A DNA stretch of 64,000 bases. Source: an uncultured delta proteobacterium. Its GTDB lineage: Bacteria > Desulfobacterota > Desulfobacteria > Desulfobacterales > JAHEIW01. Location of the stretch: NCBI GenBank assembly GCA_963706575.1, contig CAVPNL010000004.1:288001-352000 (forward strand), in the 5' to 3' direction. Within the stretch, counting starts at the first letter, position 1. Each line of letters starts with the position of its first letter. This document shows, piece by piece, positions 4,044 to 64,000 of the stretch. Under the pieces are notes generated by a model. The model was not told the DNA's origin. It saw only the letters and a list, made by a program, of their open reading frames with translations, and ran no database searches. The translations under genes and the position numbers were made by a program.

Positions 4044-4133
4044 ATTTCAGCCTTTCAAAGCATTCCAAGTAATTCTCTAATCAGGTGAGCGCTTACCAAT
4101 ATCGCCACGCATCACAGAATACAGATATATTGA

Positions 4134-4241
4134 GAGACTGTCGAAAAAGTCCCAAAATGGTGATTTTAGTAATTTCGCATGCAATGAAATCAATAATTAA
4201 CAAACACCAATTTTACGGATTTTGGGTTTTTCGACAGTCTC
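4134..4241. mobile_element. 108-bp MITE with IS1182-type ends, inserted in a boundary repeat
   Basis: TIR GAGACTGTCGAAAAA...TTTTTCGACAGTCTC; TGA duplicated on both sides; same end as the IS1182 remnant at 6232-6246. Confidence 0.85.
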
Positions 4242-4249
4242 TGAGAGTA

Positions 4250-4302
4250 TCTTAATGGCTCAGCGACTTGCATACAATGTCCGCTACAATCGCTTGTTAA
4301 GC
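4250..4302 (-). other. Degenerate attC-like site after the racemase gene
   Basis: minus strand GCTTAAC-aagcg-ATTGTAGC-GGAC...GTCGCT-gagcc-ATTAAGA; R'' perfect, L' partly missing, R' G->A. Confidence 0.45.
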
Positions 4303-4347
4303 AATAAATCGATTTTCCTCAGCCGGGGCCGCTCGACCAAACAAGGG

Positions 4348-5436
4348 TCATGCCGAGAATCGACTCACCGCGTCTTCGTTCCATTCCACGCCTGTGCCGA
4401 TGGCGTCGTCTATGATCGCCATGCCTTTCTCAATTCGGAGCGGCTCGGCCAGGATGGGGTTCCACCAGTCAGCATACTCCAGCCAATGCGCTGTCGGCGT
4501 GCAGCACAGGAGGCGCGCACTGATCTCTGGCCAAAGATGGTTGGACACACGCATACCTTTTGCGTGTGCGAGTGTCGCGGCCCTGAGCCAACCGCTCACT
4601 CCGCCAATCTTCATCACGTCTGGCATTAGGAAGTCCGATGCTTGGGCCTCAATAGCGTGCAGCATGTCCAACGTTCCCCACCAGTTCTCACCGCACTGGA
4701 TTGGGGTTCGCGCTTCGCGTGCTACAAGTGCATGCCCGGCATAATCGTGGGCGAGCGTCGGCTCTTCGACCCAGGTGAGGCCCTCGTCGTCGAGAACCCG
4801 CAGGCGTTCTACTGCCTCTGTCGGAGTGAGGCACTGGTTGTAGTCCACCATGATGGCCATGTCGTCGCCCGCTGCCTTACGAATGGCGCGCACAACGGCG
4901 ACATCCTCTTGCACAGTGGGGTAGCCAATCTTGGCCTTGACACCTGTGAATCCTCGCTTCGCCCAACTCTCGGCGCCCTTTTCGGAGCCTTGCACGCCGT
5001 CGTACCCGACCGCACCGTAGGCACGAACCGGCTTCTCCATCCCCCCGAGCAAGCGCACGAGTGGCATGCTGTGAACGCGAGCCAGCGCATCCCAAAGTGC
5101 CATGTCAATCGCAGCGAGCGCAATACCGACTAGACCTTGCGGCCCTAACAATCGGAATCGTTTGGCGAGTTTTTGCTCGACTTCGGCTGGAGCCAGGACG
5201 TCACCCTGCACCAGGGCCTCGAAATTCTGAATCAGCTCAGCTGTCGGCTTGAGCGCGGCCGGCGTGTAAGTGAACACGATGCTGTGCCCGCTGATTCCGG
5301 TGTCGGTTAAAATATCCGTCAAGACCAGAGGCGACTCGGTAATCACGCCGCTCGCGGTCTGATGCGGTTCTGTCATCGGCACCCGAACAGCCCTCACTCT
5401 GAAGCCTTTAATTGTCGGCGATGAATCTTTTTGCAT
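4348..5436 (-). CDS. Mandelate racemase/muconate-lactonizing enzyme family protein
   Basis: KAKIG (KxK), MVDYNQ, WVEEP, GENWW, MPDVMKIGG, SNHL; much GC-richer than its flanks. Confidence 0.9.
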   Translation of the reverse strand: MQKDSSPTIKGFRVRAVRVPMTEPHQTASGVITESPLVLTDILTDTGISGHSIVFTYTPAALKPTAELIQNFEALVQGDVLAPAEVEQKLAKRFRLLGPQGLVGIALAAIDMALWDALARVHSMPLVRLLGGMEKPVRAYGAVGYDGVQGSEKGAESWAKRGFTGVKAKIGYPTVQEDVAVVRAIRKAAGDDMAIMVDYNQCLTPTEAVERLRVLDDEGLTWVEEPTLAHDYAGHALVAREARTPIQCGENWWGTLDMLHAIEAQASDFLMPDVMKIGGVSGWLRAATLAHAKGMRVSNHLWPEISARLLCCTPTAHWLEYADWWNPILAEPLRIEKGMAIIDDAIGTGVEWNEDAVSRFSA

Positions 5437-5611
5437 ATCCTCCTCCGATCAGTTTGTTCAACATTAATATTGAGTAGACGTCTTGTTTTTGTATTATTTA
5501 AGGCATCTTAGTAGGCGGCAATATAATATTCCTATATGGAATAAAATGCAGATTTATATTCAGGCGAGAATTTTGATGCCATATTCTTGAAACAGTTTAA
5601 TCGATATTACA

Positions 5612-5692
5612 GATTTATTGAGAATACCTGAAAAATACCTAAACTACAGATATGCCAGAATATCACAACATTTTTAAGACTTCAAAAACCTT
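5612..5692 (+). repeat. GATA/TATC boundary repeat (sites 1 and 2; site 3 split by IS1182, remainder at 6247-6256)
   Basis: ATTGAGAATACCTGAAAAATACC...CAGATATGCCAGAATATCACAAC...AAAAACCTT, closely matching 16096-16180. Confidence 0.85.
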
Positions 5693-6246
5693 CTTGAAAA
5701 CTGATCTTTCATCGAAGATACAAAAGTTGCAATGGTACTGTGATCGGGCCGCTGGTTGCCAGACAGCGCCATAAAGGTCACGTTCTCACAGCAGGCCCTT
5801 TCAATTTGCCGCGAGGATATCAGCCCCCGCGCGTAAGCCAACAATACCACTTTTAACAAAATCTTAGGATCATAGGCACTGCGGCCTGTCTCGTCATTTT
5901 TGTAGTTGCCCTCAAATACCGACATGTCCATGCGCGTCTCAATGAGCATATGGATGGCAAACTCCAAACTGCCGGGCACCAGTTGCTCCTCTAATGAAAC
6001 CGGGATTAAAACCTTTTGGGAATAATCATAACGCTTAAATTTGGCCATTAATTTGTCCACTCCATATTTGCCTGGTTGTTGTATCAGAAACTAATCTATA
6101 CCTAGCAATAGGACTAGACATTGTCAAACGAAAAAATACAAGGATAGCCGATATTTGCGGGATATTGTTTGGAGCTTTGAGTGGGATAAAAAATTATAGA
6201 TCTTATAGAAAAACCACCTTCAATTGATACCTTTTTCGACAGTCTC
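5693..6246 (-). mobile_element. Truncated IS1182-family element (left end plus 5' part of transposase)
   Basis: ORF 5674-6060 MAKFKRYDYSQ...GRSAYDPKILLK...SSRQIE...PDHSTIATF is IS1182/DUF772-like; terminus GAGACTGTCGAAAAAG at 6246. Confidence 0.85.
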
Positions 6247-6390
6247 TGGAGATATCAAAGGTTTTAAAACCGTAATGAAACCCGTGTTACATAGAAGCAG
6301 TTAGCAACGACTTATATCTTACCAATGATTTGATTATATTGATTATTTCAGGCTCGTATGAGTTAACAAATCGGCTTGTTTGGGCATCTT

Positions 6391-7452
6391 CTAAATATCC
6401 AGCAGGCTCTTTTTGATCACGACCTGTTTGAGAATTTCAATGCTGTCGAGAGCTTTACCAGCACCTATAGCTATTGTTGATAATGGATCTTCGGTTATTG
6501 TTATCGGAAGGCCGACTTCCTCTCTGAGAAGTTTGTCCATATTTTTTAAAAGAGCACCACCGCCGGTTAATACAATTCCCCTTTCAGCGATGTCTGCAGC
6601 CAACTCCGGCGGAGTTTGTTCCAAAACCGTTTTCACCGTCTGCACAATGGCATCTATCTGCTCGGAAATTGCTATCCGTATCTCTTCTGAATCAATGGAT
6701 AAAACGTTGGGAATTCCTTTTGTAAGGTCTCTGCCCTTAACTTTTATTGTTTCCAGATTCTGAGGGTCCGGGGATGCATTTCCGATTGTGGTTTTAATTG
6801 TCTCAGCTGTCCGCTCGCCGATCAATAGATTATACTTCCTCCTGATATACTGTATGATTGCAAAATCCATCTTATCACCGGCCACCCTGATGGATCGACT
6901 GTAAACAATTCCTGCCAGAGAAATAACAGCAACCTCTGTAGTGCCGCCGCCGATATCAATTACCATATTGCCTATGGGTTCTGTGAAAGGGAGGTCGGCC
7001 CCAATTGCGGCCGCCATCGGCTCTTCAATCAAAAATACTTCGCGAGCCCCCGCAGCTTCCCCTGCTTCCCTGACAGCGCGCTTTTCAACCTGGGTAATTC
7101 CGGATGGCACGGCGATAACAATTCTCGATCTTACAAATATCCGCCGATTATGCACCCTGCGAATAAAATACCGCAGCATAGCCTCGGTAATTTCAAAATC
7201 AGCAATAACACCGTCAGCTATCGGACGAATGGCTACTATATTTCCGGGTGTCATTCCCAGCATATTTTTCGCTTCAAGACCAACAGCCAAAATGCGATTT
7301 TTTGCCCTCTGGCCCGTTTGAATCGCAACAACTGATGGCTCATTCAATACGATACCCTCGCCTTTCATCCACACGAGGGAATTTGCAGTACCCAGATCAA
7401 TGGCCAGATCATTCGAAAATAAACCCATAACTGCATTAAAGATAGAATTCAT
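6391..7452 (-). CDS. mreB: Rod shape-determining protein MreB (stand-alone paralogue)
   Basis: [22 protein letters not shown] and LTGGGALL motifs. Confidence 0.93.
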
Positions 7453-7492
7453 ATATTCTCATTGCACTTCGAAAGATAAAGATTTGAGCGTA

Positions 7493-7700
7493 TACCAGTT
7501 ACGTGACCGGCAAACCGGTTATGGCGAGAGGGGCCAATTTAATAGCGAAAATTCCTTTTATTGGGATTTAGACAATAAAATCATAGGACCCTATATTTCT
7601 TAAAACGCCTGTTTTACCCCTACAATGGTATCTTTAAGCCTAAATAACGGGCCTTTTTTTATCTCTTTTTGCAAAATATTAAATACTTACTGCGGCCCCC
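7493..7700 (+). mobile_element. Remnant (3' end and right end) of the Y1-transposase element
   Basis: Near-identical to 27462-27660 (YQLRDRQTGYGERGQFNSENSFYWDLD...GCGGCCCC). Confidence 0.85.
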
Positions 7701-7727
7701 TTTTACCCCCTTTTAATTCATTACTAT

Positions 7728-8165
7728 TTAACCGGCCGAACTAATATCTCCAGTGATTTCATTAGCGTAAGTACTAATTCTGTTGATTATATCAGTAACG
7801 TCTTGGTCGTTAATTCCGCGATCTCGAAGTGTATCAAGGAGATGGTTAACGAAAAGAGTAAAGTGGTGTTTAGTTATACCTCTGCCATGGTGGACATGAC
7901 TAAGGGGTTTACCCGTATAAGTGATAGGGCCATCAAGAGCCGCAACAAAGAACTCTCGTTGCATGCTCCGTAGCTTATCAATAGAGGTATTCCTAAAAAA
8001 CGGCTTCAGTTCAGGGTCGGCCAATATACGATCATAAAAGTCATCCACAACCTCCCCGATCATTTGCTTACCGCCGATTCGTTCAAATAGCGTTGGATAG
8101 TTATTTGGCATTTTGAATCTTTCTACTTCAGAATCTTTGATTTTCTGTGTGACACTCTCGTTCAA
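7728..8165 (-). CDS. Group 1 truncated haemoglobin (start may be 8111)
   Basis: TLFERIGG, VDDFYDRILADPELKPFF, YTGKPLSHVH. Confidence 0.9.
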   Translation of the reverse strand: MNESVTQKIKDSEVERFKMPNNYPTLFERIGGKQMIGEVVDDFYDRILADPELKPFFRNTSIDKLRSMQREFFVAALDGPITYTGKPLSHVHHGRGITKHHFTLFVNHLLDTLRDRGINDQDVTDIINRISTYANEITGDISSAG

Positions 8166-8218
8166 TTATCAGCACGAATGAGGATTAGAATAAGGATTTC
8201 ATTCCTCTAAGGTAATTA

Positions 8219-8527
8219 TCAATCAGTCTGACTGGCAGTCATCGGCGCATAAATATTGTAGTGGGTTTCTTCGCCAGTTAAAGCTTCAATTTTACTCTCG
8301 ATATGGGTTCTTTCTTTATTGTGTTTCCATCTATTCCAGTCATCTACAGTTTCCCACAAACTGATTACCAAACAATCGCCGGGATGTTCTAAATCACATA
8401 AAGTCTTACCGGAAATATATCCGGGTTGGTGCAGTGCAAGTGCTCGCATCTGCAAGATTAAAGGAACCAATTTTTTTGCATGACCGCCTTGCTTTATCTT
8501 CCTTTTAATTAAGACTTCGACCGCCAT
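8219..8527 (-). CDS. Antibiotic biosynthesis monooxygenase (ABM)-family protein
   Basis: QPGYISGKTL...LVISLWETVDDWNRW; GGAGG RBS. Confidence 0.8.
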   Translation of the reverse strand: MAVEVLIKRKIKQGGHAKKLVPLILQMRALALHQPGYISGKTLCDLEHPGDCLVISLWETVDDWNRWKHNKERTHIESKIEALTGEETHYNIYAPMTASQTD

Positions 8528-8652
8528 ATTACCCTCCAAATTTTGAGTTGGGCATTTAATATTGCGAAGTGGGTTAAATGATCAGTTTTGATAATCAATA
8601 GTTCAAGATATTTACCATTGCACCAGTGTGACGTCAACTTTTGATGAGAATA

Positions 8653-9250
8653 TCACAATTTTGGCAATTTTAAAGATATCAGCGGTGCTAAACAAGATGC
8701 ACGACATTTCACAGAAGGGGCGGTTTATTATTCGTTGGACTTGACCGGCGTCACTTTGCCCACAGCATCGAGCCAGCGGATTAGTAGGGATGGTGAAGAA
8801 CGATACCAGTTATCTTTGAGGTCATGGGCTGAGGGTGGAGCAACACGACACCAGGCACCATCAGAATACCGGATTAAGGAAACGCCGTCTAAGACCATCC
8901 GAACACTGCCGTCACCATATTTAGAAACTCGTCGTGCCATTTTCACGCTCCTGTTTAGGGGGGATGATTGAGGATACATAAGGGACTTACATTTTAACTT
9001 AATCAGTTTTTTTTCAAATTACAAGGCTTGGTTGGGCGGTCGCCGGTTAATCCTTGCGGACTGGGGTTCTTTTTTTTACCTCACCCAGCCACTTGGCCCA
9101 ATATCAAATAAAAAACCCTATCAGAAGTAACTGACAGGGCGATAAGTTCTTTGACAACCTGCTGGGACTGAGTCGCTTATGGATCAGTCCCAATTCCCAT
9201 TCTTGGTTGTGATATAAAAGCAATATCACAAGAATTTCGGAGATTCAAAA
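8653..9250 (+). repeat. About 600-bp module duplicated at 63181-63778
   Basis: Colinear high similarity; both copies begin and end inside GATA/TATC sites. Confidence 0.92.
8728..8940 (-). CDS. 70-aa basic hypothetical protein (copy 1)
   Basis: AGGAG RBS and ATG; 7 of 8 differences from copy 2 are synonymous. Confidence 0.75.
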   Translation of the reverse strand: MARRVSKYGDGSVRMVLDGVSLIRYSDGAWCRVAPPSAHDLKDNWYRSSPSLLIRWLDAVGKVTPVKSNE

Positions 9251-9575
9251 CTACAGGTTGGAGTAACATGCAATTTTAGAATGTAAAGATATTTTGGTTT
9301 GCCAGATGATATCCACAACTATCAGCGTTTGTTACGTATAGATAGCAGTCTACAATTCAGCCAAAGTTTGGATTCCAACCATTAATATAAAACTTTGAAA
9401 AGATGCTTAAATAGCAGATTATTACAATTGTGATAAAAAATGAATATCGCAAGTTTTTCAGAGTTTCAAAACCTTTGATATGTTGGATATCAACGGTTTT
9501 GTAGAGCGTTTATTCATGTGATTTTTGCAGATAGTTGAAAAGGTTTTTGCCCTCTGATATGTTTACAGTATCTGT
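9207..9575 (+). repeat. Gene-free cluster of GATA-N9-TATC sites
   Basis: TTGTGATA-TAAAAGCAA-TATCACAA (9207), TTGTGATA-AAAAATGAA-TATCGCAA (9428), GATATGTTGGATATC (9477), GATA-TGTTTACAG-TATC (9556). Confidence 0.75.
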
Positions 9576-9901
9576 AATTTATGGATGATTATGAGAACTT
9601 TGATATATAGCAGAAACATGCAAATCGGCATTCAGACCAGCGATCAAAGATATCTTAAATATTTTTAGCCGTTACAAATTATAGCTTTGTTGGATCACGA
9701 TTCATAAAGCCGGAGCTAACTTGTCAACCCACTACACTTCAAGCCTGCGCAAACTTTTCCTAAAACCGCATATCTTCCGGCGGAACCTCAATTTCAATCA
9801 GAAGATTCAGCATTGCGCAAAATTTTCTTTGGTCAATTTAATATTCAATAATAAAAAAGGGGCATTAGATGCCCCTTCGATTGTGCTGCTAATAGATCGA
9901 C

Positions 9902-10187
9902 TTACTCGGGGACCAGTGATTTGATGACTCCCTTACTATCGGCTTCCACGTTGACGGAATCACCTGGTTTTAAATTCTTTAGGCTTTCCATGTCTATGTC
10001 TGGACCTGTCATAAGCTTTTTTACATCACCGGTATCATCCTTTATTGTCAACTCCTTAGTAACGGGATTGAAGGAATCCACTGTTCCGGTTATTTTTTGA
10101 GTCTCATCAGCGGATACAGCTGCAACCGCGATAAAAGAGAATACAAAAAGAGCCATGAGCAATCATTGATACAGATTTTTTTAACAT
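9902..10187 (-). CDS. Small secreted OB-fold-like protein, one apparent frameshift in the signal peptide
   Basis: AAGGAG RBS and ATG at 10187 are one base out of frame with ORF 9902-10162 (ITGTVDSFN...LKPGDSVNV). Confidence 0.65.
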
Positions 10188-10338
10188 TTTTAACTCCTTA
10201 GGGTTTCTAATTAATTTTGTTTTTTTTGATTCGCTTATCCGTGACAATCCACACTGGATCAATTCTTAGTTTCTCCTTTCTTTACACCTCCTTTTCCCGT
10301 AGTTAGACTTTCAATTCCTGCCTTTCTTTTTATGTCAT

Positions 10339-10354
10339 TGCAAATGGTATACCA
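10339..10354 (-). promoter_or_regulatory. Putative sigma54 -24/-12 promoter
   Basis: minus strand TGGTATACCATTTGCA (GG-N10-GC). Confidence 0.45.
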
Positions 10355-10661
10355 AAACAACCAGTTTCAATATCTATTTGAAATTTATAAATATTTTTAC
10401 TTGAAATGATTTTTGGCATCTTACTTGTGTATGATTTACCTTACACAAGCTAACAGGAAAAAGAATGAATTAGAGTTGTAAGTAACCGAGGATTCTATGT
10501 TTAATAAACATTTAAGGATTTTTATTCACAGTGACTACAAAATCGTACTCAAATCAAGTACCGCGGAGGATATTTTAAAGACTCAATCTTTATTTATATC
10601 ATAACATTCATAGTTACTTAGGTGAAAAATTGGATTGCTAATTGGCTAATTATAAAAAGAT

Positions 10662-11241
10662 TTATGATTCATCCGGTAATGAATAAATTGGAGATAAATA
10701 ATCGCTTTCTTGTTTTATTTCTTCTACTATCTTTTTGACATCTGTTGTCTTTCCATTCACCATTTCCACTACTATTTTTGAGTCCTTCAAGATTTAAACC
10801 AGAAACAATCATACTCGAATTTGCACCTACCCTGTGCATTGCCCTAACCAACTTATATATTTTGTCCTTTTGCGGATGATTCTGCCATGGGTGCTTTTTA
10901 CTTACAACGACAACATTTAATGACTCAAATTTATCAGAAACCTGTTTCGTGGCAATCTTATCGACTTTATGAACGATTTGCCTGAGGTCATTGGCTATTT
11001 CCCGCAACTGATTGGTCTGCAATTCATGCTTGGTATTATGTGGAGATTGTCTTTGATCTGAGCTAAGTAGATTAGCGACCGCCCTTTCAATAAATTGGGT
11101 AATGGTTTTCCCTGTCAATTTTCTTTCTTTATCTATCAGATTCTTTAGTTCAGCAGACACCTTAACCGTTATGGTCTTCTTGTCTTCTGAAGCATGCTTT
11201 TCTTTCTTTTTCATGTGGCTAACCTGGCACTTATCGTTCAT
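10662..11241 (-). CDS. Putative DNA-binding protein: RHH-like N-terminus plus recombinase-domain-like C-terminus; frameshift near 10750
   Basis: KTITVKVSAELKNLID...TITQFIERAV; IYKLVRAMHRVGANSSMIVSGLNLEGLKNSSGNGEW continues as KTTDVKKIV after removing one A. Confidence 0.6.
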
Positions 11242-11991
11242 CTGTATTTTTTTATTATTTGGCTATAGCTGGTTCGGTTATATTTAATATTCGCTGGACT
11301 CTATGGCTGCTTGGCCGCCGGTTTCTTCGATAGGTGCGTTTCGAAGAGACAGTATTTTTGATGATCAGGAACGAAAAGAGCGATTAAAAAGAAAACTTCT
11401 GGCAGCATAGAGTTTAGAAGTTATGAAACCTTGATGAATTTCTTTTTGCTAAGGTTATTTGGCAAATTAATGTTTTTCATCTAAATACTTTAACATTAAT
11501 ATTGCAAAAACACCGATAAGTACCATGGCAAAATTAACAATAAGTACCATCTTTAGTTCCTTTTACTCATGGACAAATGAATTAGAGATGCTATTATCCA
11601 TTTAAATATTGCAAAACTCATTCCATTTTTTATTGGAAATTTTTTGTAAATAATCAGGGATGTTAAGAATGGCAGGGTAGGATTCTAAAACGGAGATGTG
11701 TACAATATTATACGGAGCGTAAGATATTTTATAATTAAATCAACTTAGTGATTTATAGATACACGAAATACATTTTTTTACATTTCATGCGCCAGTCCTT
11801 AATTTTTGGCCATGCAAAAGAGAATAAATTAGCGTGCCTGATGCGAAAATTTGGAGGGTCCGGAATTTTGTTAGGTGTGGTCACGAAATATCCAATTTGG
11901 GATTTTGTAGATTGGGTTAAATAAGCTGAAATTTCGCAATAGGAAAACTTGAGATATCACAACAGAAAACCAAATATCATCCAGGTTGCTA

Positions 11992-12047
11992 TTAATTGAG
12001 AATACCTGAAAAATACCAGAAGTGCAGATATCGTAATCTGATATCAC
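11992..12047 (+). repeat. GATA/TATC boundary repeat next to the PilZ stop codon
   Basis: ATTGAGAATACCTGAAAAATACCAGAAGTGCAGATATC...GATATCAC. Confidence 0.8.
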
Positions 12048-12053
12048 AGGTTT

Positions 12054-12353
12054 TTAAATTAACTTTGCTCCGTAGCCGAGTTGATAAGATGATCCCTGAA
12101 TTTCTATACACCACATGATTTTGACATCAAAATACTGATGGGATTTACTTATAAATTGCTGTGGTGGTTTCTTAATTGATATGGCTATCTCATGTCCTTG
12201 TAAAAGGTCTTCGTTAGTTTCGAAATACAATCCCTCCTTACTAAAGTTGTACATAGTGCCCTTGTAAAAAAAATCAGCTGGACTCGTATTATGCAGAATA
12301 GGAGTTTCACATGGAATCCGCTCAGATTTTCTGCGTTCAATGCCAGTATTCAT
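12054..12353 (-). CDS. PilZ-domain protein
   Basis: RRKSER (RxxxR) and NFSKEG (NxSxxG); GGAGGAG RBS. Confidence 0.85.
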   Translation of the reverse strand: MNTGIERRKSERIPCETPILHNTSPADFFYKGTMYNFSKEGLYFETNEDLLQGHEIAISIKKPPQQFISKSHQYFDVKIMWCIEIQGSSYQLGYGAKLI

Positions 12354-12446
12354 TTGTTCATCTCCTCCGCTTGATAAGGTCGCCGATAATTTAATCTTAG
12401 AAAACATGCGATTACTTGCAAGTATCCTACGTTGGCATCAACCTGT

Positions 12447-12498
12447 GATACATTGATAATATCACCAACACAGGAAATTTCAGATATCAAGCGATATC
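12447..12498 (+). repeat. GATA/TATC boundary repeat (sites 1 and 2)
   Basis: GATA-CATTGATAA-TATC-19nt-GATA-TCAAGCGA-TATC. Confidence 0.75.
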
Positions 12499-12671
12499 CT
12501 AAAAACAAAACCCCACCTCTCAATTTGAGAAATGGGGTTCTGGAAATAAAAACATAATACCCTCCGGTAAAGGGTTATTATTTATTTTTTTTCGTACTTT
12601 TGAAGGGCTTCATGCATTCAGCGTCTTATAGCCTCTAAGCGTGTATTATTTCGGAAAGTTCTAGATAGTAC

Positions 12672-12836
12672 TTACAATTTGAAAGATCTATCTTGCTCTA
12701 AATCGTCCATTGTTTTTGAATATTTAGCTTTAGATGATTGACCAATTTTTGACAATAAACCGATTAGCAGGTAGGTCAAGGTCAGAAAAAGTATAATCGC
12801 TAAACTAGCAAATATTATGATCTCAAATTTTGGCAT
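12672..12836 (-). CDS. 54-aa single-pass membrane protein (below the ORF-track cutoff)
   Basis: GAGGG RBS; MPKFEIIIFASLAIILFLTLTYLLIGLLSKIGQSSKAKYSKTMDDLEQDRSFKL. Confidence 0.55.
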   Translation of the reverse strand: MPKFEIIIFASLAIILFLTLTYLLIGLLSKIGQSSKAKYSKTMDDLEQDRSFKL

Positions 12837-13176
12837 TATTTACCCTCAACAAAATATTTAATGCTTAACAGTATCATAAATTATATGTAGTTTCTATAGA
12901 CTAATTTTGGTGATTGGTCTTTATTAAACCATTGGAAAAAAGGGAGGGATGTCATTTGTCTTCTCCAAATCGGACTCCTGGTAAACTTAAAACAATGCTC
13001 CACAATACCGAAAAAACTCTTTCAACGCCGTTTTAAGCGATTAAAATTCGTTCTGAAGAGTTAATGGGGGAAACGGATAGTTTCTTTGGTAATTTTTTAA
13101 CAAGATTTAAACTAAAAACTTTTCGACAATTTGAGGGGCAGGATCGTTTAGATTTTGTCCCTATTCCCTTCTTTAA

Positions 13177-13231
13177 TTGTGATATAAAACGTGTATCACA
13201 ACTTTTTCAGAGATTCAAAAGTGCTGATATG
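13177..13231 (+). repeat. GATA/TATC boundary repeat (site 2 plus site 3 split by the intron, continuing at 15088-15100)
   Basis: TTGTGATA-TAAAACGTG-TATCACAA-...-GATATG|intron|TTGGAGAAATC. Confidence 0.85.
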
Positions 13232-15087
13232 GTTAAGTGGCGCAGGGGGATTTCACCCCTACGCTCTCCAAGATCCGTACGTGACAGTCTCCCGTCATAC
13301 GGCTCCTACTGTCCAGCCGTCGGCCGAAAGCCAAATTCCCAAGTCGCAATTAGTCTGGGTTCACGGCGTGCAATGCGACCTAACCAATGGGTCGCCTTGA
13401 GCCAGTGGCCTCTCAGCCTTTTGTATTTCCGCATCGCCCAACGAACCAAGGCATACTGAAGCTGACGGAGTATGGGACGCAATGCTGATTTGTAATATTT
13501 GCCATAATAGTTTAACCAACCCCTAATCACAGGGTTGATTCGACTGGCAATATCCTCTAATGAAGATGAGCTCCATAAATGCAACTTCCAGCCCCTTATC
13601 GTAGCACTCATCGCTTTGATCGCTGATTTGCTCACCGCTGGTGTAAAACCCACAAAATAGTTGCGACCTTTACAGTCGCGCGGTCGAAAGCAGTAACCAA
13701 GAAAATCAAAACTCTCATGCTTATAGTTTCCGGGGCGTCTTACATCCTTACAATAGACAATTTTCGTCTTCTCCGGATGCAATTGCAACTTGCAGCGTGC
13801 CAGCCGTCTTTCAATGACCTTCAGCATGACCTGCGCCTGAGGTTCTGTACGACAGTGGACAATAATATCATCCGCATATCTTGCAAATGGTGTACTCGGA
13901 TAATTCACCCGCATCCACTCATCAAACGCGTGGTGAAGAAAAATATTGGCCAGCAGGGGGCTTATCACTCCCCCTTGGGGTGTGCCCTTTTCTGTTTCGA
14001 TGAGACTACCGTCCTCCGATTGTGCCGGAGCTTTCAGCCATCTCTCGATGTAGAGCAGCATCCACTTGCTGTCCGTATGCTTCTTCACCGCGTACAACAT
14101 CAGCTCATGGTCAATGTTATCGAAGAACCCCTGTATGTCCAGATCGATCACCCAGTTGTACCACCAGCACCTTTTGCGAACCACGCCAACTGCATCCAGT
14201 GCTGATCTGCCTGTTATGTAACCATAAGAATCCGGGTCAAAAATCGGCTCTACATCGGGCCCCAGACACATCTTGACCACCATCTGCGCCACGCGATCCG
14301 ATACGGCTGGTATACCCAACCTTCTGGATCCCCCATCGCTTTTGGGTATGTCTACCGTGCGCACCGGCGGAGGAAAATAACTGCCCGAGGACATCCGATT
14401 CCAGATCTTATAAAGGTTGTCCTTGAGATCAACCTCAAAATCTTTGATCGACTGCCCATCGACTCCCGCAGCACCTTTGTTCGCCTTTACCCGACGATAG
14501 GCTTCCCAAACCACCTGCTTGGAAATACTAAACGACTTTGTTTTAGTAATAGGCTCCTCCCATCTCTGGTTGACCGCATCGCTAAAACCAGACAGCACAA
14601 CTCCTTCGCTCCACCTGCATTACACAGACTTCCTCACTACTACGAGTTGTTCCGCCCCCGTGTCCCGCATCGGTACTCTCACGCTTGTGGGTCCTCCACT
14701 TGCGTTTCTCCCTTAACATCGGAACGACAGGTTCCCACGTTCCGCACAAAAGCCTGGATCAAGTTCATGCCATCTCTATGCCGGACGCCGCCCAGACAAT
14801 AAACAGGCTCCCTCTGGGCTTTTCCTGCAGACCTCCAAGTATCCGCAGTTTTGACGACATCTCAGATATTTCGACACCTCATCAATGGTTCGCTTGTGCT
14901 CATCTCCTTGATCCATACCTGACACAGTCTTGGCCATGCCTTGCCCTTAACGCTCACCACAACGGCTCTTTACCGATGCAGCTTAAGGTGGTTTGAAGCC
15001 TGCTCCTGCAAGCCGACTCCGAAGGGCCCTCCTTCATCTTCCGTGCAGTTACGCACACTTTATATTAAAAGTGCGCTCGTGGCGCAC
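13232..15087 (-). mobile_element. Group II intron, RmInt1-like (bacterial class D)
   Basis: 5' GTGCG at 15087; domain V GAGCCGTATGACGGGAGACTGTCACGTACGGATC; domain VI ending AAC at 13232; EBS1 loop TTGGAG at 14833-14838. Confidence 0.93.
13306..14550 (-). CDS. ltrA: Group II intron reverse transcriptase/maturase, no endonuclease domain
   Basis: LYKIWNRMSSGSYFPPPVR, PQGGVISPLLAN, RYADD, NPVIRGWLNYY; RBS GGGAGGAG is followed by ATT rather than ATG at 14550. Confidence 0.92.
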   Translation of the reverse strand: MTKTKSFSISKQVVWEAYRRVKANKGAAGVDGQSIKDFEVDLKDNLYKIWNRMSSGSYFPPPVRTVDIPKSDGGSRRLGIPAVSDRVAQMVVKMCLGPDVEPIFDPDSYGYITGRSALDAVGVVRKRCWWYNWVIDLDIQGFFDNIDHELMLYAVKKHTDSKWMLLYIERWLKAPAQSEDGSLIETEKGTPQGGVISPLLANIFLHHAFDEWMRVNYPSTPFARYADDIIVHCRTEPQAQVMLKVIERRLARCKLQLHPEKTKIVYCKDVRRPGNYKHESFDFLGYCFRPRDCKGRNYFVGFTPAVSKSAIKAMSATIRGWKLHLWSSSSLEDIASRINPVIRGWLNYYGKYYKSALRPILRQLQYALVRWAMRKYKRLRGHWLKATHWLGRIARREPRLIATWEFGFRPTAGQ

Positions 15088-15140
15088 TTGGAGAAATCAC
15101 AAGTTTCTGCTTTCCGAATAAAAGCCAAAATGGAAATAGC

Positions 15141-15173
15141 AAAAGGCAGGGCCTTGACGACCCTGCCTCTTTT
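15141..15173. terminator. Bidirectional intrinsic terminator
   Basis: AAAAGGCAGGG-CCTTGACGA-CCCTGCCTCTTTT. Confidence 0.6.
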
Positions 15174-15192
15174 CTGATTTCTTAGTTATGGT

Positions 15193-15717
15193 TCACTGTT
15201 TTGGTTCGATTATTTTCCAAGTTCCCGTTCCTCTACTGATAGCCTGGTGTGTTCCTTCTGCGGCAGGTCTCATAGGCCTTCTAGTATATTCTATGCCTCC
15301 CTCAATTCCTTTAAATTTTCCAGTCCCTCCTACAATTTTACCCTTTCCACTAACTGGGTTGGGTCCAAGCTGGACTCCCTCTTCCGTAAGTTCCATGACT
15401 ACTTTATCACCATCTTTGTCTATATTAAATATATACCCCCTTAGGCTCCCTACACCATTTTCGAAATACATAACGCCTATATTATGTATTGACATACCGT
15501 GGAATGGACCCGTGTTACTATCACTGACTCTTACTCCAAAATTTTCATATGTGAATGCAAAATTTTCTTTATCGAGGGGGTAAACTTTATGAGTACCTCC
15601 ATAAGTGACAGTGCCAGAAATGGTGCCTTCTTTTGCCATCTCTGCCTTCGAGAAAGGCACTAAAGCGAGCAAGAAAACAAGCGCCAGTATTGATGCTATA
15701 ATTATTCTCCTCATCAT
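15193..15717 (-). CDS. Secreted hypothetical protein (beta-rich)
   Basis: AGGAGG RBS; signal peptide; GGTGKFKGIEG motif. Confidence 0.8.
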   Translation of the reverse strand: MMRRIIIASILALVFLLALVPFSKAEMAKEGTISGTVTYGGTHKVYPLDKENFAFTYENFGVRVSDSNTGPFHGMSIHNIGVMYFENGVGSLRGYIFNIDKDGDKVVMELTEEGVQLGPNPVSGKGKIVGGTGKFKGIEGGIEYTRRPMRPAAEGTHQAISRGTGTWKIIEPKQ

Positions 15718-16095
15718 TTACCTCCTTTTTGTGTAGGTGTCGCGTAGGGTTACGTTCTTTTCAAATGGTCATTTTGTCTCCTAACAGAACAGCTACATCT
15801 GTTAGGAGAAAGATTGGCACATTTTGAGTGGTATCTCCATTTCACTTTTCCCGAATATTTGGGTTAAAGTTCGTGGGAACCGGAGTCTATATGAGTGGCG
15901 AAAGCATATTAGAATTTGCAGAGTCGCTCAGCAGGCGAATGTGAAAGGGAAAGAAAACTGATAATGAAAATGAATTTTAGATAGGAAATTGAACTTCAGG
16001 AAGCACGCAAATAACAGCCTTATATTTGATACCAGATCTAAATGTCAAGCGAAATGCATTTATTTGTCAGATTTCACAAGCTGATGTCAGGTTTT

Positions 16096-16195
16096 GATAT
16101 ATTGAGAATACCTGAAAAATACCGAAAGTACAGATATGCCAAAATATCACAACTTTTTTATGTCCCTAAAAACCTTTGATAAGTTGGAGAGTACC
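16096..16195 (+). repeat. Complete three-site GATA/TATC boundary repeat
   Basis: GATA-TATTGAGAA-TACC-20-GATA-TGCCAAAA-TATC-29-GATA-AGTTGGAGAG-TACC. Confidence 0.88.
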
Positions 16196-16207
16196 AGATA
16201 TATGGAT

Positions 16208-16264
16208 TCTTAACGGCTGAATGGAGCGGCGCTGTCAAGCGTTCGCTCCCATGATGTGTTAGGA
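16208..16264 (-). other. attC-like integron recombination site (57 bp)
   Basis: minus strand TCCTAAC-5nt-ATGGGAGC...GCTCCAT-6nt-GTTAAGA; extra base in L'' and canonical spacers. Confidence 0.65.
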
Positions 16265-16759
16265 TTTATTATATTTGACCAATGTAAAAGGCTATCCACG
16301 TTATTTTAAGATGACTTACTACCGTTCCGTGAACTTCCCCGATCCGAAGCTCATGAGCTGACACTGCTGTCTGGCCATCTCAATAATCTCCTTTTTCGTC
16401 ATGTCGCCACCAATGGGCTGTTAGGTGTAGTGAGTGAATGGGGTTTTTAATGCTGCCGGCCCTATGGATTTTACGCAACAGGCACCTTATCCAAACCTTA
16501 GTGAGCGAATTCTTTTAATGAGATCCCCCTGAGACCTGGGCGCCGGTCCTGCCGGGTGATTGAATGTTGGACGAGCCAGTTTTACATGCAAATACGAATA
16601 AGCATATTAATACGACTAAAATTATTTTTTTCACGGCCTTTCTCCTATTTTATTTTTTGTCTTTGTATAAAATTGAGCATCAAAAAGAAAACAACTAACT
16701 ATAAATATTTGGCTAAAGACCTTCGTTGTCAATTGTTATTTCAGGTGGTGATATATTGA

Positions 16760-16867
16760 GAGACTGTCGGAAAACCTAAAATGTGTGTTTTTAGTGCCTC
16801 TAAGTACTTGATATTACTATACCCGAATTTTGGAAAATGGTTGAAATTAGACTTTTTCGACAGTCTC
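16760..16867. mobile_element. 108-bp MITE with IS1182-type ends, inserted in the boundary repeat 16750-16902
   Basis: GAGACTGTCGGAAAA...TTTTTCGACAGTCTC; TGA duplication; same length as 4134-4241. Confidence 0.85.
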
Positions 16868-16905
16868 TGAGAATATCACTAAATCGGGCAACTTGTGATA
16901 TCATT

Positions 16906-17907: not shown

Positions 17908-17955
17908 GATATATATTGAGAGTATCACCAAAACAAGGAACTTGTGATATTATCC
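17908..17955 (+). repeat. GATA/TATC boundary repeat
   Basis: ATATATTGAGAGTATCACCAAAACAAGGAACTTGTGATATTATCC. Confidence 0.8.
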
Positions 17956-17986
17956 CCATTTTCTGAGAACAGTATCTCAATAATAG

Positions 17987-18363: not shown

Positions 18364-18462
18364 GATATATTGAGAGAAACCCAAATATCGTAATTTTACA
18401 GATATGCTAAAATATCACAACTTCTCGAGGCCGGTCAATTTTGCCGATATGTTGGAGATATT
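18364..18462 (+). repeat. Complete three-site GATA/TATC boundary repeat
   Basis: GATA-TATTGAGAG-AAAC-20-GATA-TGCTAAAA-TATC-29-GATA-TGTTGGAGA-TATT. Confidence 0.88.
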
Positions 18463-20027: not shown

Positions 20028-20070
20028 GATATATTGAGAGTACATGCATTTTGGCAAAATTACAGATATG
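20028..20070 (+). repeat. GATA/TATC boundary repeat
   Basis: GATA-TATTGAGAG-TACA-20-GATATG. Confidence 0.75.
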
Positions 20071-20090
20071 CACTCTAACGCCATATCTCC

Positions 20091-20399
20091 TTAATTAAAA
20101 ATTAGAATGGCAAAGCCGATTCCGAATCCTATTAATGGAACAATATATTTCAGATATTTCTCTTTAACTCCAGTTTTTCCGCTCAACAGCCTCCCTCTAT
20201 GGTTGTGTATTCTTACCAGGATACTAAGGAGATAAAAGCCAACGCAACAAATTGCATAAATGGCAATATTAGCTGCTTCAGGAAATCTATCAAAATATAT
20301 AAACAAAAATGAAAGCAATAAACCCGAAGTAAAAGAAATAATAAGCCAACTAAACTCATTATTCCAATTCATACGATCGGTTTTTTCGTCATAGCCCAC
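20091..20399 (-). CDS. Hypothetical three-TM membrane protein
   Basis: Three hydrophobic segments; start uncertain. Confidence 0.65.
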   Translation of the reverse strand: MGYDEKTDRMNWNNEFSWLIISFTSGLLLSFLFIYFDRFPEAANIAIYAICCVGFYLLSILVRIHNHRGRLLSGKTGVKEKYLKYIVPLIGFGIGFAILIFN

Positions 20400-20487
20400 T
20401 GAATATCCACCTTAGATGTCGCCATACATGATAAATGGCAGTTCACACATGCTTATTCAGACATATAACAGCCATACACCAGGTTGT

Positions 20488-20878
20488 GATACATTGAGAG
20501 AAACACAAATATCGCAATTTTACAGATACCATATGGATATCTGCACCGTATCGCATTTTTAAATCTGCTGTCAAATTGAAGTCCCGAAAAATGAGGCTTT
20601 GAGACAATAAAAAGGGCAAATCCATAGGATCGGATTCACCCTTTTGAGTTGTGATTTAAAGCGAATATCGCAGGAATTTTCAGATTTGATATCTACCGTT
20701 TTGTTAGAGTAATCGCAGCTATTTAAAGGCAAATTTTATTACCAAAAAATAGCAGACACCTAAAAGATGGCTCTCTTGTGATTAGTTTACAATATCTGAA
20801 AATATGAGGATGCAAGATACTTGGTTTTTATTGTTGATATCTGTAATTGTGGCGCATCTGCGATATGTTGGTACCACA
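20488..20878 (+). repeat. Gene-free cluster of GATA/TATC sites
   Basis: GATA-CATTGAGAG-AAAC-20-GATA-CCATATGGA-TATC (20488); TTGTGATT-N9-TATCGCAG (20649); GATATGTTGGTACC (20862). Confidence 0.7.
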
Positions 20879-23821: not shown

Positions 23822-23899
23822 ACCCAGGCAACCCGGCTGTCTGCTTGAGACCCGCGGCTTTCCGTCCCCTTCTCACAAAGGGTTTGGCTTTATCGTGGG
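23822..23899 (-). ncRNA. c-di-GMP-I (GEMM-I) riboswitch, copy 2
   Basis: minus strand AAAGCCAAACCCTTTGTGAGAAGGGGACGGAAAGCCGCGGGTCTCAAGCAGACAGCCGGGTTGCC followed by a terminator-like hairpin at 23775-23812. Confidence 0.9.
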
Positions 23900-23927: not shown

Positions 23928-24952
23928 GGGGGTCGGGCCACGCTAACTAATTGACATTATGTCACAAACATCATAAAATCAAGCCGTTTTAGGCCTTAGA
24001 AGCCCCATTTTGGGGTCAAAATCACCCTTCTAAGGAAAAGGTTGCTTTAATGGCACGCGCAAAAAGACATTACCTTCCCGGGCACGTCTGGCACATAACA
24101 CACCGATGCCACAAAAAGGAGCTTTTGCTAAAACTAGTTAAAGACAGGCAAAGGTGGCTTTATTGGTTGTTTGAGGCTAAAAAACGATATGGTTTGTGCA
24201 TTCTCAACTATATCGTAACATCAAACCATATTCATCTTCTTGTGGCAGATGATGGGTCTCGAGATGCCATCCCCAGGTCAATGCAACTGTTAGCCGGACG
24301 AACCGGGCAGGAATATAATCAGCGCAAAAAGCGCAAGGGTGCTTTCTGGCAAGATCGCTATCATGCAACTGCTGTGCAAAGTAATTCGCATTTAATCAAA
24401 TGCATGACCTACATTGATCTGAATATGGTGCGTGCAGGTGCGGTAAAGCATCCACAAGAGTGGATTCACAGCGGATATCATGAAATTCAAAAGCCCAAAG
24501 AAAGATATGGTTTAATTGACTTCAAAAGCCTAATGCAGCGGCTGCCGATTGAGTCCAAAGACGAATTGAAGGAGGCGCATTATAAATGGATTGAAGAACA
24601 ATTGAAAAAATCACAGCTGGTTCGTGAAAGCAAATGGACTCAAAGCATTGCTGTTGGAGAAAAATCGTTTGTTGAACAAATAAAAAAACGGCTTGGTATT
24701 CGTTCTAAAGGTCGGAAGATTCTCGAAAATGAAGGTGACCACCAGTTACGTGACCGGCAGACCGGTTATGGCGAGAGGGAACAATTTAATAGCGAAAATA
24801 CCTTTTATTGGGATTTAGACGAAAAAACCGTAGGGTCTTATATTCATTAAAATGCCCATTTTAGCCCTAAAATGGTGCCTTTAAGCCTAAAAAACAGGCC
24901 TTTTTTTAGCTCTTTTTGCAAAATATCAAATACTTGCTGCGGCCCGACCCCC
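23928..24952 (+). mobile_element. Y1 (HUH) transposase element, copy 1
   Basis: Ends GGGGGTCGGGCCAC...GCGGCCCGACCCCC; similarity to copy 2 stops at these ends. Confidence 0.88.
24050..24850 (+). CDS. Y1/HUH transposase (IS200/REP-associated type)
   Basis: HITHR, NHIHLL (HUH), FWQDRY, YIDLNMVRAG (catalytic Tyr). Confidence 0.9.
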   Translation: MARAKRHYLPGHVWHITHRCHKKELLLKLVKDRQRWLYWLFEAKKRYGLCILNYIVTSNHIHLLVADDGSRDAIPRSMQLLAGRTGQEYNQRKKRKGAFWQDRYHATAVQSNSHLIKCMTYIDLNMVRAGAVKHPQEWIHSGYHEIQKPKERYGLIDFKSLMQRLPIESKDELKEAHYKWIEEQLKKSQLVRESKWTQSIAVGEKSFVEQIKKRLGIRSKGRKILENEGDHQLRDRQTGYGEREQFNSENTFYWDLDEKTVGSYIH

Positions 24953-25296
24953 TTTTCTTTTTTGAGGCCTATACTGCTCTTTTGGGAGTCAAAACCGGCA
25001 TTATAGTCCCATATATGAGCCCTTATCTGATATTAATCTTTATAATTTTAGCTCCTTAGCGCGGCTCGACCCATAGATAACATTCTCGGTGAAATTGTAA
25101 AGAAATGTTCGTCCTTGTCCAAATAAGGTTGTAGAAGGGATGTCCCCTTTGTTTCCAGATTTAAAAGCTGCCGGGTTTTTAGAATTGACACATATCATAA
25201 AACGTGCCAATCGAAGTTTATGGAACCTTCCATTAGAACCCTGTATCCTGACCCGTCCGAATCCCTTGTTTTAAACCAATCGGGGATCGGAAGAAA

Positions 25297-26613: not shown

Positions 26614-26651
26614 GCAAACAGCAAAGAGAAATGAAAAAGGCGTATTGTATT

Positions 26652-27668: not shown

Positions 27669-28005
27669 TTTCGCTTTCGCATGATGGGCTCCTTCTGGCT
27701 GTGGGGTTGGTGGTTCTTCCTAACATTACCAGATCGCCTGTCATGTCCACTATTTATTTATATGGTGCACTTTGAATTTGAATTCACCAAATCGTTTCGA
27801 TCAGCAACATCGTTTACAATCCTGCGCTTTTCGATTCCTCTTACGATTACATGATGCAAAGTCCCAGGGACATCCAACCGGGCTCGACGCGGCATCGTAT
27901 CCCTCCTGCCCAACTATTTTTATCAATCACGTAACACAAATACAAATAAGTTTTTTTAGTCAACAACGTCCCTTAATTCGAGCTATAGAAAGCAACTCAT
28001 TTGCT

Positions 28006-62166: not shown

Positions 62167-62530
62167 TTGAAAAGCCCTAAGCTCCCTGCGCCGGCAATCA
62201 ACCGGCGCCCTTGTTTAGTACCCATCTCAAAAATAGGTTTTTGCTTCAAGATTCCATCTTCGCCTAAAGGCTTCCGTCTTCGTTAACCGCCGTCGCTATA
62301 GCTATGGCGGTCAAGAAACTTCGACGGGACAGGTCGCCGGGACACGCGCGGCGGAGCCAAGTTTCTAATGCTGCAGCCTATACAACAACACGTAATATAA
62401 AATGAATACCGCAGGTTTTTGAATTTGTTAAAAGTGCCGATTAGTTGGAGCTGTACGAATAAAAGGCAGAGCCATTGCTGGCCCTGCCCTTGTGTGTAAC
62501 TTATCCACCACAATTTAAATTATTGGTCAA

Positions 62531-62827: not shown

Positions 62828-63180
62828 GACTTTTTTCCTGCCTTTTTTAATGGGTGAGCATAATTTGCACGGTAATTTATTGGAATCCCCCAACAGGATA
62901 TAAAATCCCGTCAGGAGCCTGGCATGCATAATTTTAGTGGTTTCTCCATTGAATCTTTACCTGATTATTAGGTTAAATTTTAATGGAAACCAGTATCTAT
63001 TTCAGAGGGAAAATAACTTTTAGATTGGGAATCCGTTCAATGGGTAAGCAGGAATTTCAGAAAAGAAATTATGAGAACTAACAGTGAGTGTGAGAATCAG
63101 CTCCAATCGAGCACAATGTTAAATTTCAAATATTACAGGCACCATTCAATGTCAATGAAATTCAAAAACCGATACATTGA

Positions 63181-63778
63181 TCACAATTTTGGTAATTTTA
63201 AAGATACCAGCGGTGCTAAATAAGATGCACGACATTTCACAGAAGGGGCAGTTTATTATTCGTTGGACTTGACCGGCTTCACTTTGCCCACAGCATCGAG
63301 CCATCGGATCAGCAGGGATGGTGAAGAACGATACCAGTTATCTTTGAGATCATGGGCTGAGGGTGGAGCAACACGACACCAGGCACCGTCAGAGTACCGG
63401 ATTAAAGAAACGCCGTCTAAGACCATCCGAACACTGCCGTCACCATATTTAGAAACTCGTCGTGCCATTTTCGCGCTCCTGTTTAGGGGGGTGATTGAGG
63501 ATACATAAGGGACTTACATTTTAAGTTAATCAGTTCTTTTCAAATTACAAGGCTATAGCTGGGCGGTCGCCCGTTAATCCTTGCGGGCTGGGGTTCTTTT
63601 TTTTTACCTCACCAAGCCGCCTGACCCAATACCAAATAAAAAACCCTATCAGAAGTAACTGACAGGGCGATAAGCTCTTTGACAACCTGCTGTGACTGAG
63701 ACGCTTATGGATCATTCCCAATTCCCATTCTTGGTTGTGATATAAAAGCAATATCACAAGAATTTCGGGGATTCAAAA
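63181..63778 (+). repeat. Second copy of the 600-bp module (first at 8653-9250), bounded by GATA/TATC sites at 63171 and 63735-63800
   Basis: Colinear with copy 1; ends TTGTGATA-TAAAAGCAA-TATC-28-GATA-TGTTGGAAA-TATC. Confidence 0.92.
63256..63468 (-). CDS. 70-aa basic hypothetical protein (copy 2)
   Basis: 69 of 70 aa identical to 8728-8940. Confidence 0.75.
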   Translation of the reverse strand: MARRVSKYGDGSVRMVLDGVSLIRYSDGAWCRVAPPSAHDLKDNWYRSSPSLLIRWLDAVGKVKPVKSNE

Positions 63779-64000
63779 GTACTGATATGTTGGAAATATC
63801 AGCAGGTTTTATATCGTACTATTTGGAATAATCTATTAATGCGCATAGAGTGCATCGCAGGGAGGTGCAACTCTCTGCCCAGAGCCTTATGACTTCTAGC
63901 CTCTATGAGCATTTTTTTATATAGAAATTATGACTTTTCTTCTCAAAAAGTAATTGCTGCGAAGGTCGTATTTTTTATAATATTTACATAACTAAGAATT

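Follow-up and report, generated by a model that had tools for sequence, protein, structure and literature searches.

Mobile elements of three unrelated classes at the cores of a candidate tyrosine-recombinase cassette system in Desulfobacterales

Why should a group II intron, an insertion sequence (IS) of the IS1182 family and two miniature inverted-repeat transposable elements (MITEs) enter a short boundary repeat at nearly the same point? The question is raised by a 64,000-nt stretch (the window; C4:288001-352000) within the 5.67-Mb assembly, 92% complete, of an uncultured delta proteobacterium of the order Desulfobacterales (genome G000). The answer we favour, and hold to be probable, is that three unrelated mobile classes, namely IS1182 elements with MITEs, group II introns and an element encoding two recombinases, are specialised on the cores of a tyrosine-recombinase cassette system, with a small Xer-like protein as its likely enzyme. 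The convergence on the cores is far beyond chance.

Anatomy and distribution of the boundary repeat

The repeat comprises three sites. An arm, site 2, lies 37 bp to the right of site 1 (GATAY-ATTGAGA; 28 copies aligned), which lacks any counterpart of the arm on its left. For site 3 (GATAT-GTTGGAG; 20 copies aligned) the arm lies 45 bp to the left, and the right side is without one. The arm itself is a GATA...TATC palindrome with a variable spacer, and the site 1 and site 3 cores lie 82 bp apart in the empty unit at 16096-16189. Arms flanking each core on both sides were considered and do not occur at sites 1 and 3, although the GTTTACA core of genome G394 has them on both sides.

Profiles of sites 1 and 3 matched the genome 103 times, compared with 3 matches in the reversed genome, and the matches form about a dozen regional clusters. 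The first-pass annotation had proposed an abundant, recombination-type site with specialised parasites; these numbers bear it out, and a third class of element now joins the other two. Exact GATAYATTGAGA words number 25 among the genome's 209,646 TGA trimers, and 5 of these 25 exact site-1 words are occupied. Beyond this genome, five genomes of the genus contain the site-1-plus-arm pattern 18, 12, 10, 13 and 4 times and two genomes of another family 19 and 9 times; in the order as a whole, 59 of 201 genomes have at least one match (reversed control, 0-2 per genome).

Duplicated segments and foreign contigs both point to the cores. Across 15 duplicated pairs with 40 distinct ends, parasites excluded, 12 ends fell within 10 bp of a core (random, 2.0%) and 16 within 25 bp (random, 4.8%). 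Contigs from four other sediment studies depart from the window at 4124, 13231 and 17914; the divergence at 17914 is that of an X2 contig, a contig from X4 covers 20041-20491, exactly core to core, and contigs from the X2 run carry an intron-free allele that ends at 13231 and continues TTGGAGG. These contigs show presence only, and most of their joints were short-sided and left unused. The repeat would thus represent the two ends of a tyrosine-recombinase cassette system with the cores as crossover points, a proposal drawn from the sequence pattern: the left end would be a half-site, a 7-bp core and an arm 37 bp inside, and the right end an arm, 45 bp, a half-site and a different 7-bp core. 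A crossover in site 2 was considered and abandoned, as the segment ends place it at the cores of sites 1 and 3.

Three known systems were rejected. A Tn3-type res site, with three subsites and a serine resolvase, fails because crossovers map to two 7-bp cores and the genome has zero matches to PF00239. An integron or attC array, defined by IntI and RYYYAAC...GTTRRRY hairpins, fails because the 92%-complete genome has no TIGR02249 match above the cut-off and the repeat folds no better than shuffled sequences (z, -1.25 and -1.92). A pdif/Xer module with IS1202 fails because the sites lack the XerD box as given in PMC10132070 and the IS is an IS1182 inside the core. Separately, an IS-bearing arm and site 3 follow the 3' end of a tRNA gene, called by eye, at about 247100-247200 of contig C8, a possible array anchor.

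Elements inserted at the cores

The two MITEs of the window end in GAGACTGTCG(A/G)AAAA and lie between TGA duplications at GATATAT|TGA|GA. Of the 18 matches to the 10-mer GAGACTGTCG in the genome, ten form the ends of the five MITEs and three the left ends of IS copies; an orphan end lies at C4:271457, and the other four are unpaired and chance-like. All five MITEs lie in GATAYAT|TGA|GA of site 1 (ATTGAGA core) and all four IS1182 copies touch the site-3 word (GTTGGAG core), a segregation of 5/0 versus 0/4 (Fisher p, 0.008), and the resident IS is therefore probably not the helper of the MITEs. Site-1-targeting transposases form a different subclade from that of the resident IS1182. Two IS copies are whole (C1:180734-182567 and C6:430700-432533, each 1834 bp) and have a TGG duplication in 2/2 cases, the C6 copy lying in a bare palindrome without an arm. 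A copy on C8 retains its right end only and the window copy its left end only, and the two could be halves of one event. The 546 bp of the window remnant match the left part of the 1834-bp element without a difference, and from 6247 onward the sequence is TGGAGATATC; sites 1 and 2 stand on the other side of the remnant because a deletion took the left half of site 3 together with the remaining IS.

The full-length transposase, a single 505-aa open reading frame between imperfect inverted repeats, scores 302.6 against NF033551 (cut-off, 270) and contains DUF772 and DDE_Tnp_1_6, which places it in the IS1182 family. The MITEs are non-coding, 108 bp long, share inverted repeats identical to the IS left end and have a 3-bp duplication in 5/5 cases. 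One orphan IS1182-type end (C4:271443-271460) is fused to the end of a Y1-transposase-type repeat.

We extended the comparison to other genomes, 111 of 401 of which contain the IS1182 end motif. From 41 transposase loci, 30 pattern loci and 40 fetched regions we retained 54 paired elements with a 3-bp duplication, unpaired ends being excluded, and these gave 46 distinct complete insertions, 7 at AAC/GTT and 39 elsewhere. Each target was scored out of 10 for agreement with GATAT-N7-ATATC, core positions 3-5 being aligned on the duplication. Overall, 30 of the 39 scored at least 6/10 (mean, 7.2), compared with backgrounds of 2.4% in the genome and 3.5% in the window; without the genome under study the fraction was 23/32, and among AAC/GTT targets 1/7. 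Off-register, odd offsets scored 1.1-2.0, and offsets of -2 and +2 scored 4.3 and 5.6 because the motif is self-similar. Strict RYYYAAC occurs in 2/7 of the AAC/GTT targets.

Core words, called by eye on aligned flanks, matched between IS and MITE targets and recombinase ends (ATTGAGA, GTTGGAG, ATAGCAG, ATGGAGA, (A/C)TTGCAG and CTTGCCA). Full-length IS in polar cores opposed the GATAT strand in 18/18 cases, two elements of unclear polarity being left out of the count, and this is the direction of most cassette genes. In a midpoint-rooted transposase tree of 31 rows, users of ATTGAGA and ATGGAGA form one clade (100/100), users of ATAGCAG and TGCAG fall in others and AAC/GTT users lie outside (84/87). 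The transposase family counts 2,809 proteins at E<=1e-150. A viral collection yielded no relative of the transposase or of the single recombinase described below, and its 83 matches to a 14-mer are probably chance. We propose that this IS1182 clade and the 108-bp MITEs cut core positions 3-5, the dyad centre, in one orientation, with each transposase subclade preferring one core word; by known chemistry, a transposase dimer would centre its 3-bp staggered cut on the 17-bp dyad.

The same convergence could arise, though we regard this as unlikely, if IS1182 were guided by a site-bound recombinase, through protein contact or bent DNA, with core preference secondary. Guidance would fit a duplication that sits at the overlap centre whatever the sequence (TGA, TGG, AGC, GGA, TGC or CGC), a 108-bp MITE found in ATTGAGA, ATAGCAG and GTTGGAG cores alike, and sister transposases directed to AAC/GTT, where another tyrosine recombinase cuts; both routes are left open for IS1202 at Xer sites (10.1101/2022.12.17.520857). 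However, the C6 insertion in a bare palindrome and an insertion at locus L018 in an arm palindrome with a 7-bp spacer both lack a full site, which favours direct DNA read-out. Core words are also specific to transposase subclades, and a cut between two occupied half-sites should be hindered.

The second class is the group II intron, the sole copy in the genome, which splits GATATG|TTGGAGAAATC, one base 5' of the IS cut at GATATGT|TGG. The first-pass positions of the MITEs, the IS remnant and the intron agree with ours to the base. Its claim that all insert at nearly the same point holds for an equivalent point, but on two different cores, ATTGAGA for the MITEs and GTTGGAG for the IS and intron. 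Exon-binding site 1 (EBS1) of the intron is part of a stem-loop and base-pairs with the final seven nucleotides of the exon, and a putative EBS2, in a register inferred from RmInt1, forms 3 of 5 pairs with its own target. The intron has a reverse transcriptase (RT)/maturase without an endonuclease domain and a IIB-type ribozyme with EBS1 and EBS2, both features of class D, and we call it class D-like. The first part of the C-terminal motif LX3AX3PXLF[V/A]HW, as given in PMC4615759, matches, and the last residues differ. A IIC-attC identity was rejected, as the target is a core read by EBS1 and EBS2 and the repeat lacks an attC-like hairpin fold; of the parallel to IIC-attC introns drawn earlier, the core-specialised intron stands, whereas this one is class D-like and relies on pairing between EBS and intron-binding site (IBS) rather than on hairpin reading.

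Among 110 loci of intron relatives, EBS1 reads UUGGAGG, UAGCAGA, UAUAUUG or UAUCUG and tracks core and register. The closest introns (RT, 89-100%; L051, L052, L188 and L190) are alike in splitting G|TTGGAG. A subclade at 81%, from one genome (L053, L068 and L074; EBS1 UAGCAGA) splits A|TAGCAG, a 63-73% group (L067 and L192; EBS1 UAUAUUG) inserts at GA|TAYATTGAGA, and L056, L057, L218 and L244 enter ATAGCAG or ATTGCAG from the opposite strand. Many other relatives occupy YADD codons of RT genes or unrelated DNA. Core-targeting introns fall into at least three separate, well-supported branches of a FastTree RT tree with a weak backbone and no named class D reference, and a single origin with later losses would also be compatible with that backbone. 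A DNA search of 25 genomes of the family found 30 loci, 21 with a 5' end, and 17 of these ends lie in cores known from other evidence: 8 in GTTGGAG (own copy included; one CTGGAG), 6 in ATTGAGA, 2 in GTTTACA and 1 in site 3 from the other strand. Three more lie in a probable variant, GTAGATG, and one is unrelated. For introns the palindrome score is uninformative, as targets in YADD codons score too.

Together, these counts (MITEs 5/5 and IS 4/4 in the own genome; IS and MITE targets 30/39 across genomes; introns 17/21 in the host family) bear out the enrichment of the repeat in the elements' flanks that the first-pass annotation had predicted. The class D-like introns, from at least three lineages, would retrohome into the core through a complementary EBS1, with reverse splicing guided by EBS/IBS pairing as PMC4615759 describes for RmInt1-type introns.

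Two further groups of relatives were seen. At least 22 related introns lie in YADD codons of RT genes (L194-L200, L211-L213, L221, L231, L234, L246, L250 and others), and such GATAT-like DNA is a possible route by which a lineage switched to cores. In one clade (L201, L205, L216 and L248), insertion follows ...GTAA at a distance of three bases from 7-bp words (CTGTTAG, for example), which possibly marks another recombination site.

The third class is a recombinase pair, found at C12 and C1 as an element of 2108 bp that has inverted ends of its own and lies between two GTTGGAG words, within site 3. Across genomes, 17 of 29 such loci are complete (2.1-2.3 kb), and 14 of the 17, one a duplicate, carry a word found at single-recombinase ends. 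The core word may serve as the element's own overlap, with integration through 7-bp homology. At L184 (G175:C18:546494-552408), an intron, a broken two-recombinase element and a single recombinase are stacked within 6 kb, the pair being inserted in a CTTGCCA core just 5' of the single recombinase gene.

A candidate recombinase and competing explanations

The genome has ten matches to PF00589, one of them a small Xer-like gene at C18 in which the N-terminal part falls out of frame at a run of A; the gene is in frame at L141, L142 and L149. We find this single recombinase, whose nearest plasmid relative is at 28%, in 45 of 201 genomes. Its usual package is core-arm-gene-terminator-arm-core with unlike cores: ATTGAGA/GTTGGAG (L154), ATTGAGA/GTTTACA (L451 and L453) or CTTGCCA/ATAGCAG (L141, L142, L144 and L150). 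With the test limited to core words derived from IS targets, such a word lies 116-127 bp upstream at 9/26 loci (control, 3.1%) and 70-123 bp downstream at 13/30 (control, 6.4%). Recombinases and parasites also agree within genomes: in G394 the recombinase ends are ATTGAGA/GTTTACA, introns lie in GTTTACA and MITEs in ATTGAGA, with the same agreement in G196 (GCTGTCA) and G175 (CTTGCCA/ATAGCAG). The small Xer-like protein is a likely cognate enzyme of the repeat, its own gene apparently packed between such ends, and the site 1-2-3 unit of the window reads as the recombinase package in empty form.

For the elements, the gain would be a multicopy, intergenic target on moving DNA. An intron or IS insertion would abolish the GTTGGAG core; a MITE entering site 1 would re-form ATTGAGA with its first two bases while replacing the right half-site and moving the arm by 111 bp. 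With cores split and arms displaced, occupied sites are probably inactivated. The earlier term 'safe harbour' is not supported by these results and could mean only that such sites are intergenic and multicopy.

A broader picture is possible, and we offer it tentatively. The system would perform natural cassette exchange, in which incompatible 7-bp cores (ATTGAGA, GTTGGAG, GTTTACA, ATAGCAG, CTTGCCA and others) act as slots and one frameshift-controlled recombinase makes a double crossover; a guild of parasites would have radiated core by core, with IS1182 hunters sister to hunters of integron attC. Such a system resembles recombinase-mediated cassette exchange.

Several observations weigh against a specialisation on the cores of such a system, or against its proposed enzyme. 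The majority of duplicated-segment ends (24/40) lie more than 25 bp from a core, 9/39 IS targets score below 6/10, 3/17 complete two-recombinase elements have mismatched flanking words, and the orphan end at C4:271457 is outside the boundary repeat. An IS-derived word is absent from 17/26 upstream and 17/30 downstream recombinase flanks, and the own-genome single recombinase has site 1 upstream and an inverted site 1 downstream. When five genomes were re-searched, G107, G228 and G334 gave no match to the single recombinase and G028 gave a fragment, although G028 and G107 have 12 and 10 site-1 matches; two of these four genomes are repeat-rich and 97% complete. Just 13 of 25 repeat-rich genomes have it, compared with 32 of 176 others, and these are kin rather than independent. 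More generally, the genomes are related and several loci are near-copies, such that our counts overstate independence, and the data are sequences, in which recombination, transposition and homing are unobserved.

It is improbable that the two-recombinase element, rather than the single frameshifted recombinase, shuffles the cassettes as a helper instead of a parasite. The cores do serve as its crossover words, it occurs in 6/25 repeat-rich versus 13/176 other genomes and it co-occurs with the single recombinase in 11/19; but its own terminal inverted repeats are unlike the half-sites, four repeat-rich genomes of the same genus have no match at E<=1e-60, and it is the single recombinase that the arm-core ends themselves bound. 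Least credible is a protein-binding or regulatory palindrome whose AT-rich symmetry the elements merely favour: IS1182 members do target inverted repeats (PMC5678879) and recombination itself is unobserved, yet duplicated-segment ends fall on cores, cores are where contigs from other sediments part from the window, the 7 bp are precisely the crossover of a tyrosine-recombinase element, and cores bound a recombinase gene at fixed distances.

Other features of the window and relation to known systems

Table 1. Repeat sites, inserted elements and intron parts in the window (positions in the 64,000-nt stretch)
Feature	Position	Strand	Remarks
Site 1 half-site GATAT and core ATTGAGA	4124..4135	+	re-formed by first GA of MITE1
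MITE1	4134..4241		108 bp, IS1182-type ends; TGA duplication 4131-4133 / 4242-4244
Site 1 with arm site 2	5612..5666	+	core 5617-5623; left of IS remnant
IS1182 remnant	5701..6246	-	left end and first 121 transposase codons; remainder deleted
TGG duplication and right part of site 3	6247..6256	+	TGG AG ATATC
Module, degenerate site-1-type core to GTTGGAG core	8639..9263	+	duplicate at 63171-63795
Arm site 2 and site 3 variant	9430..9488	+	GTTGGAT
Site 1 and arm	11990..12047	+	
Site 1 variant and arm	12447..12490	+	ATTGATA
Arm site 2 and left part of site 3	13179..13231	+	GATAT G; intron 3' exon
Group II intron	13232..15087	-	1856 nt, GTGCG...AC, class D-like, single copy
Intron-encoded RT/maturase, no endonuclease domain	13306..14598	-	Pfam RVT_1 and GIIM only; TIGR04416 420.8 vs 300
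EBS1 UUGGAGG	14832..14838	-	complementary to IBS1 TCTCCAA, one G-T wobble
Putative EBS2 AUCUG	14863..14867	-	complementary to consensus outer half-site CAGAT
Remainder of site 3	15088..15098	+	TTGGAG AAATC; intron 5' exon
Empty unit	16096..16189	+	site 1 (16096), site 2 (16133), site 3 (16178)
Site 1 holding MITE2	16750..16761	+	
MITE2	16760..16867		108 bp; TGA duplication 16757-16759 / 16868-16870; arm shifted to ~16897
Site 1 and arm	17910..17956	+	starts segment duplicated twice on contig C1; breakpoint at core
Second empty unit, sites 1-2-3	18364..18457	+	
Cassette bounded by two site-1 cores	20028..20499	+	
Site 3 then CTGTACGA	62439..62458	+	remnant end of two-recombinase element
Arm and site 3 variant	63737..63795	+	GTTGGAA

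Two features of the cassette region recall integrons. A mandelate-racemase-family gene (4348-5436) has 60% G+C in surroundings of 41-46% and is followed by what resembles the start of an attC (4262-4300) cut by site 1; it looks like an integron cassette recaptured by the present system. An attC-like hairpin at 16206-16266 directly follows site 3 (z, -3.06 on the - strand), with boxes that are not strictly consensus and IntI not found in the genome. Other cassette-region genes encode a sulfur oxygenase reductase (PF07682; 18503-19462), carried as a cassette in a host that is probably an anaerobic sulfate reducer, a truncated haemoglobin (7728-8165), a PilZ protein (12054-12407) between two site-1 cores and an mreB-like product (6391-7452) adjoining the end of a Y1-transposase-type element (7494-7708). 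The window also contains two c-di-GMP-I-GGC riboswitches (1041-1115 and 23823-23897) and, at 24050-27671, two Y1 (IS200-like) transposase genes with common ends around a di-haem cytochrome c peroxidase gene.

Elements that hunt recombination sites have been described. The ISAba32/ISAjo2 subgroup of IS1202 is likewise a DDE IS at tyrosine-recombinase cassette sites (pdif/dif), in one orientation and with its mechanism open; IS1202 insertions lie 5 bp beyond the XerC arm, duplicate 5-6 bp and leave the site intact (10.1101/2022.12.17.520857, PMC10132070), whereas IS1182 interrupts the 7-bp overlap itself and duplicates 3 bp, in a site that is not dif-like and is shared with introns and a recombinase element. 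IIC-attC introns and IS1111-attC are likewise intron and IS lineages on cassette recombination sites (PMC3001079). Those introns are of class C, and both elements lie antisense to cassette genes; the present intron, in contrast, is class D-like, pairs with the core through EBS1 and EBS2 and is sense with cassette genes, and several intron lineages converge on a site without an attC fold in a genome where IntI was not found. RmInt1-type class D introns (PMC4615759) share the missing endonuclease, a length of ~420 aa, EBS1-3, a partly similar C-terminal motif and a preference for repeated DNA, but relatives of RmInt1 home into IS coding sequences rather than recombination cores. Within the IS1182 family, IS1272 also targets inverted repeats but replaces them without duplication (PMC5678879), unlike the clean 3-bp duplication at the dyad centre seen here. 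Our literature search, outside which lay most subscription journals, supplements and ISfinder notes, returned no report of IS1182 elements or class D introns in tyrosine-recombinase cores and none of the present cassette system, which is apparently undescribed.

Few hunters of recombination sites are known: IS1111-attC, IIC-attC and IS1202-Xer. In the present case, the same seven bases of a cassette system that is not an integron attract three unrelated chemistries, and the target words co-vary from genome to genome. The parasites in this way mark where a candidate recombinase would cross over and provide independent evidence for an old, active system, and IS1182 transposases with differing, precise targets form a natural series for the question of how DDE enzymes find their sites.

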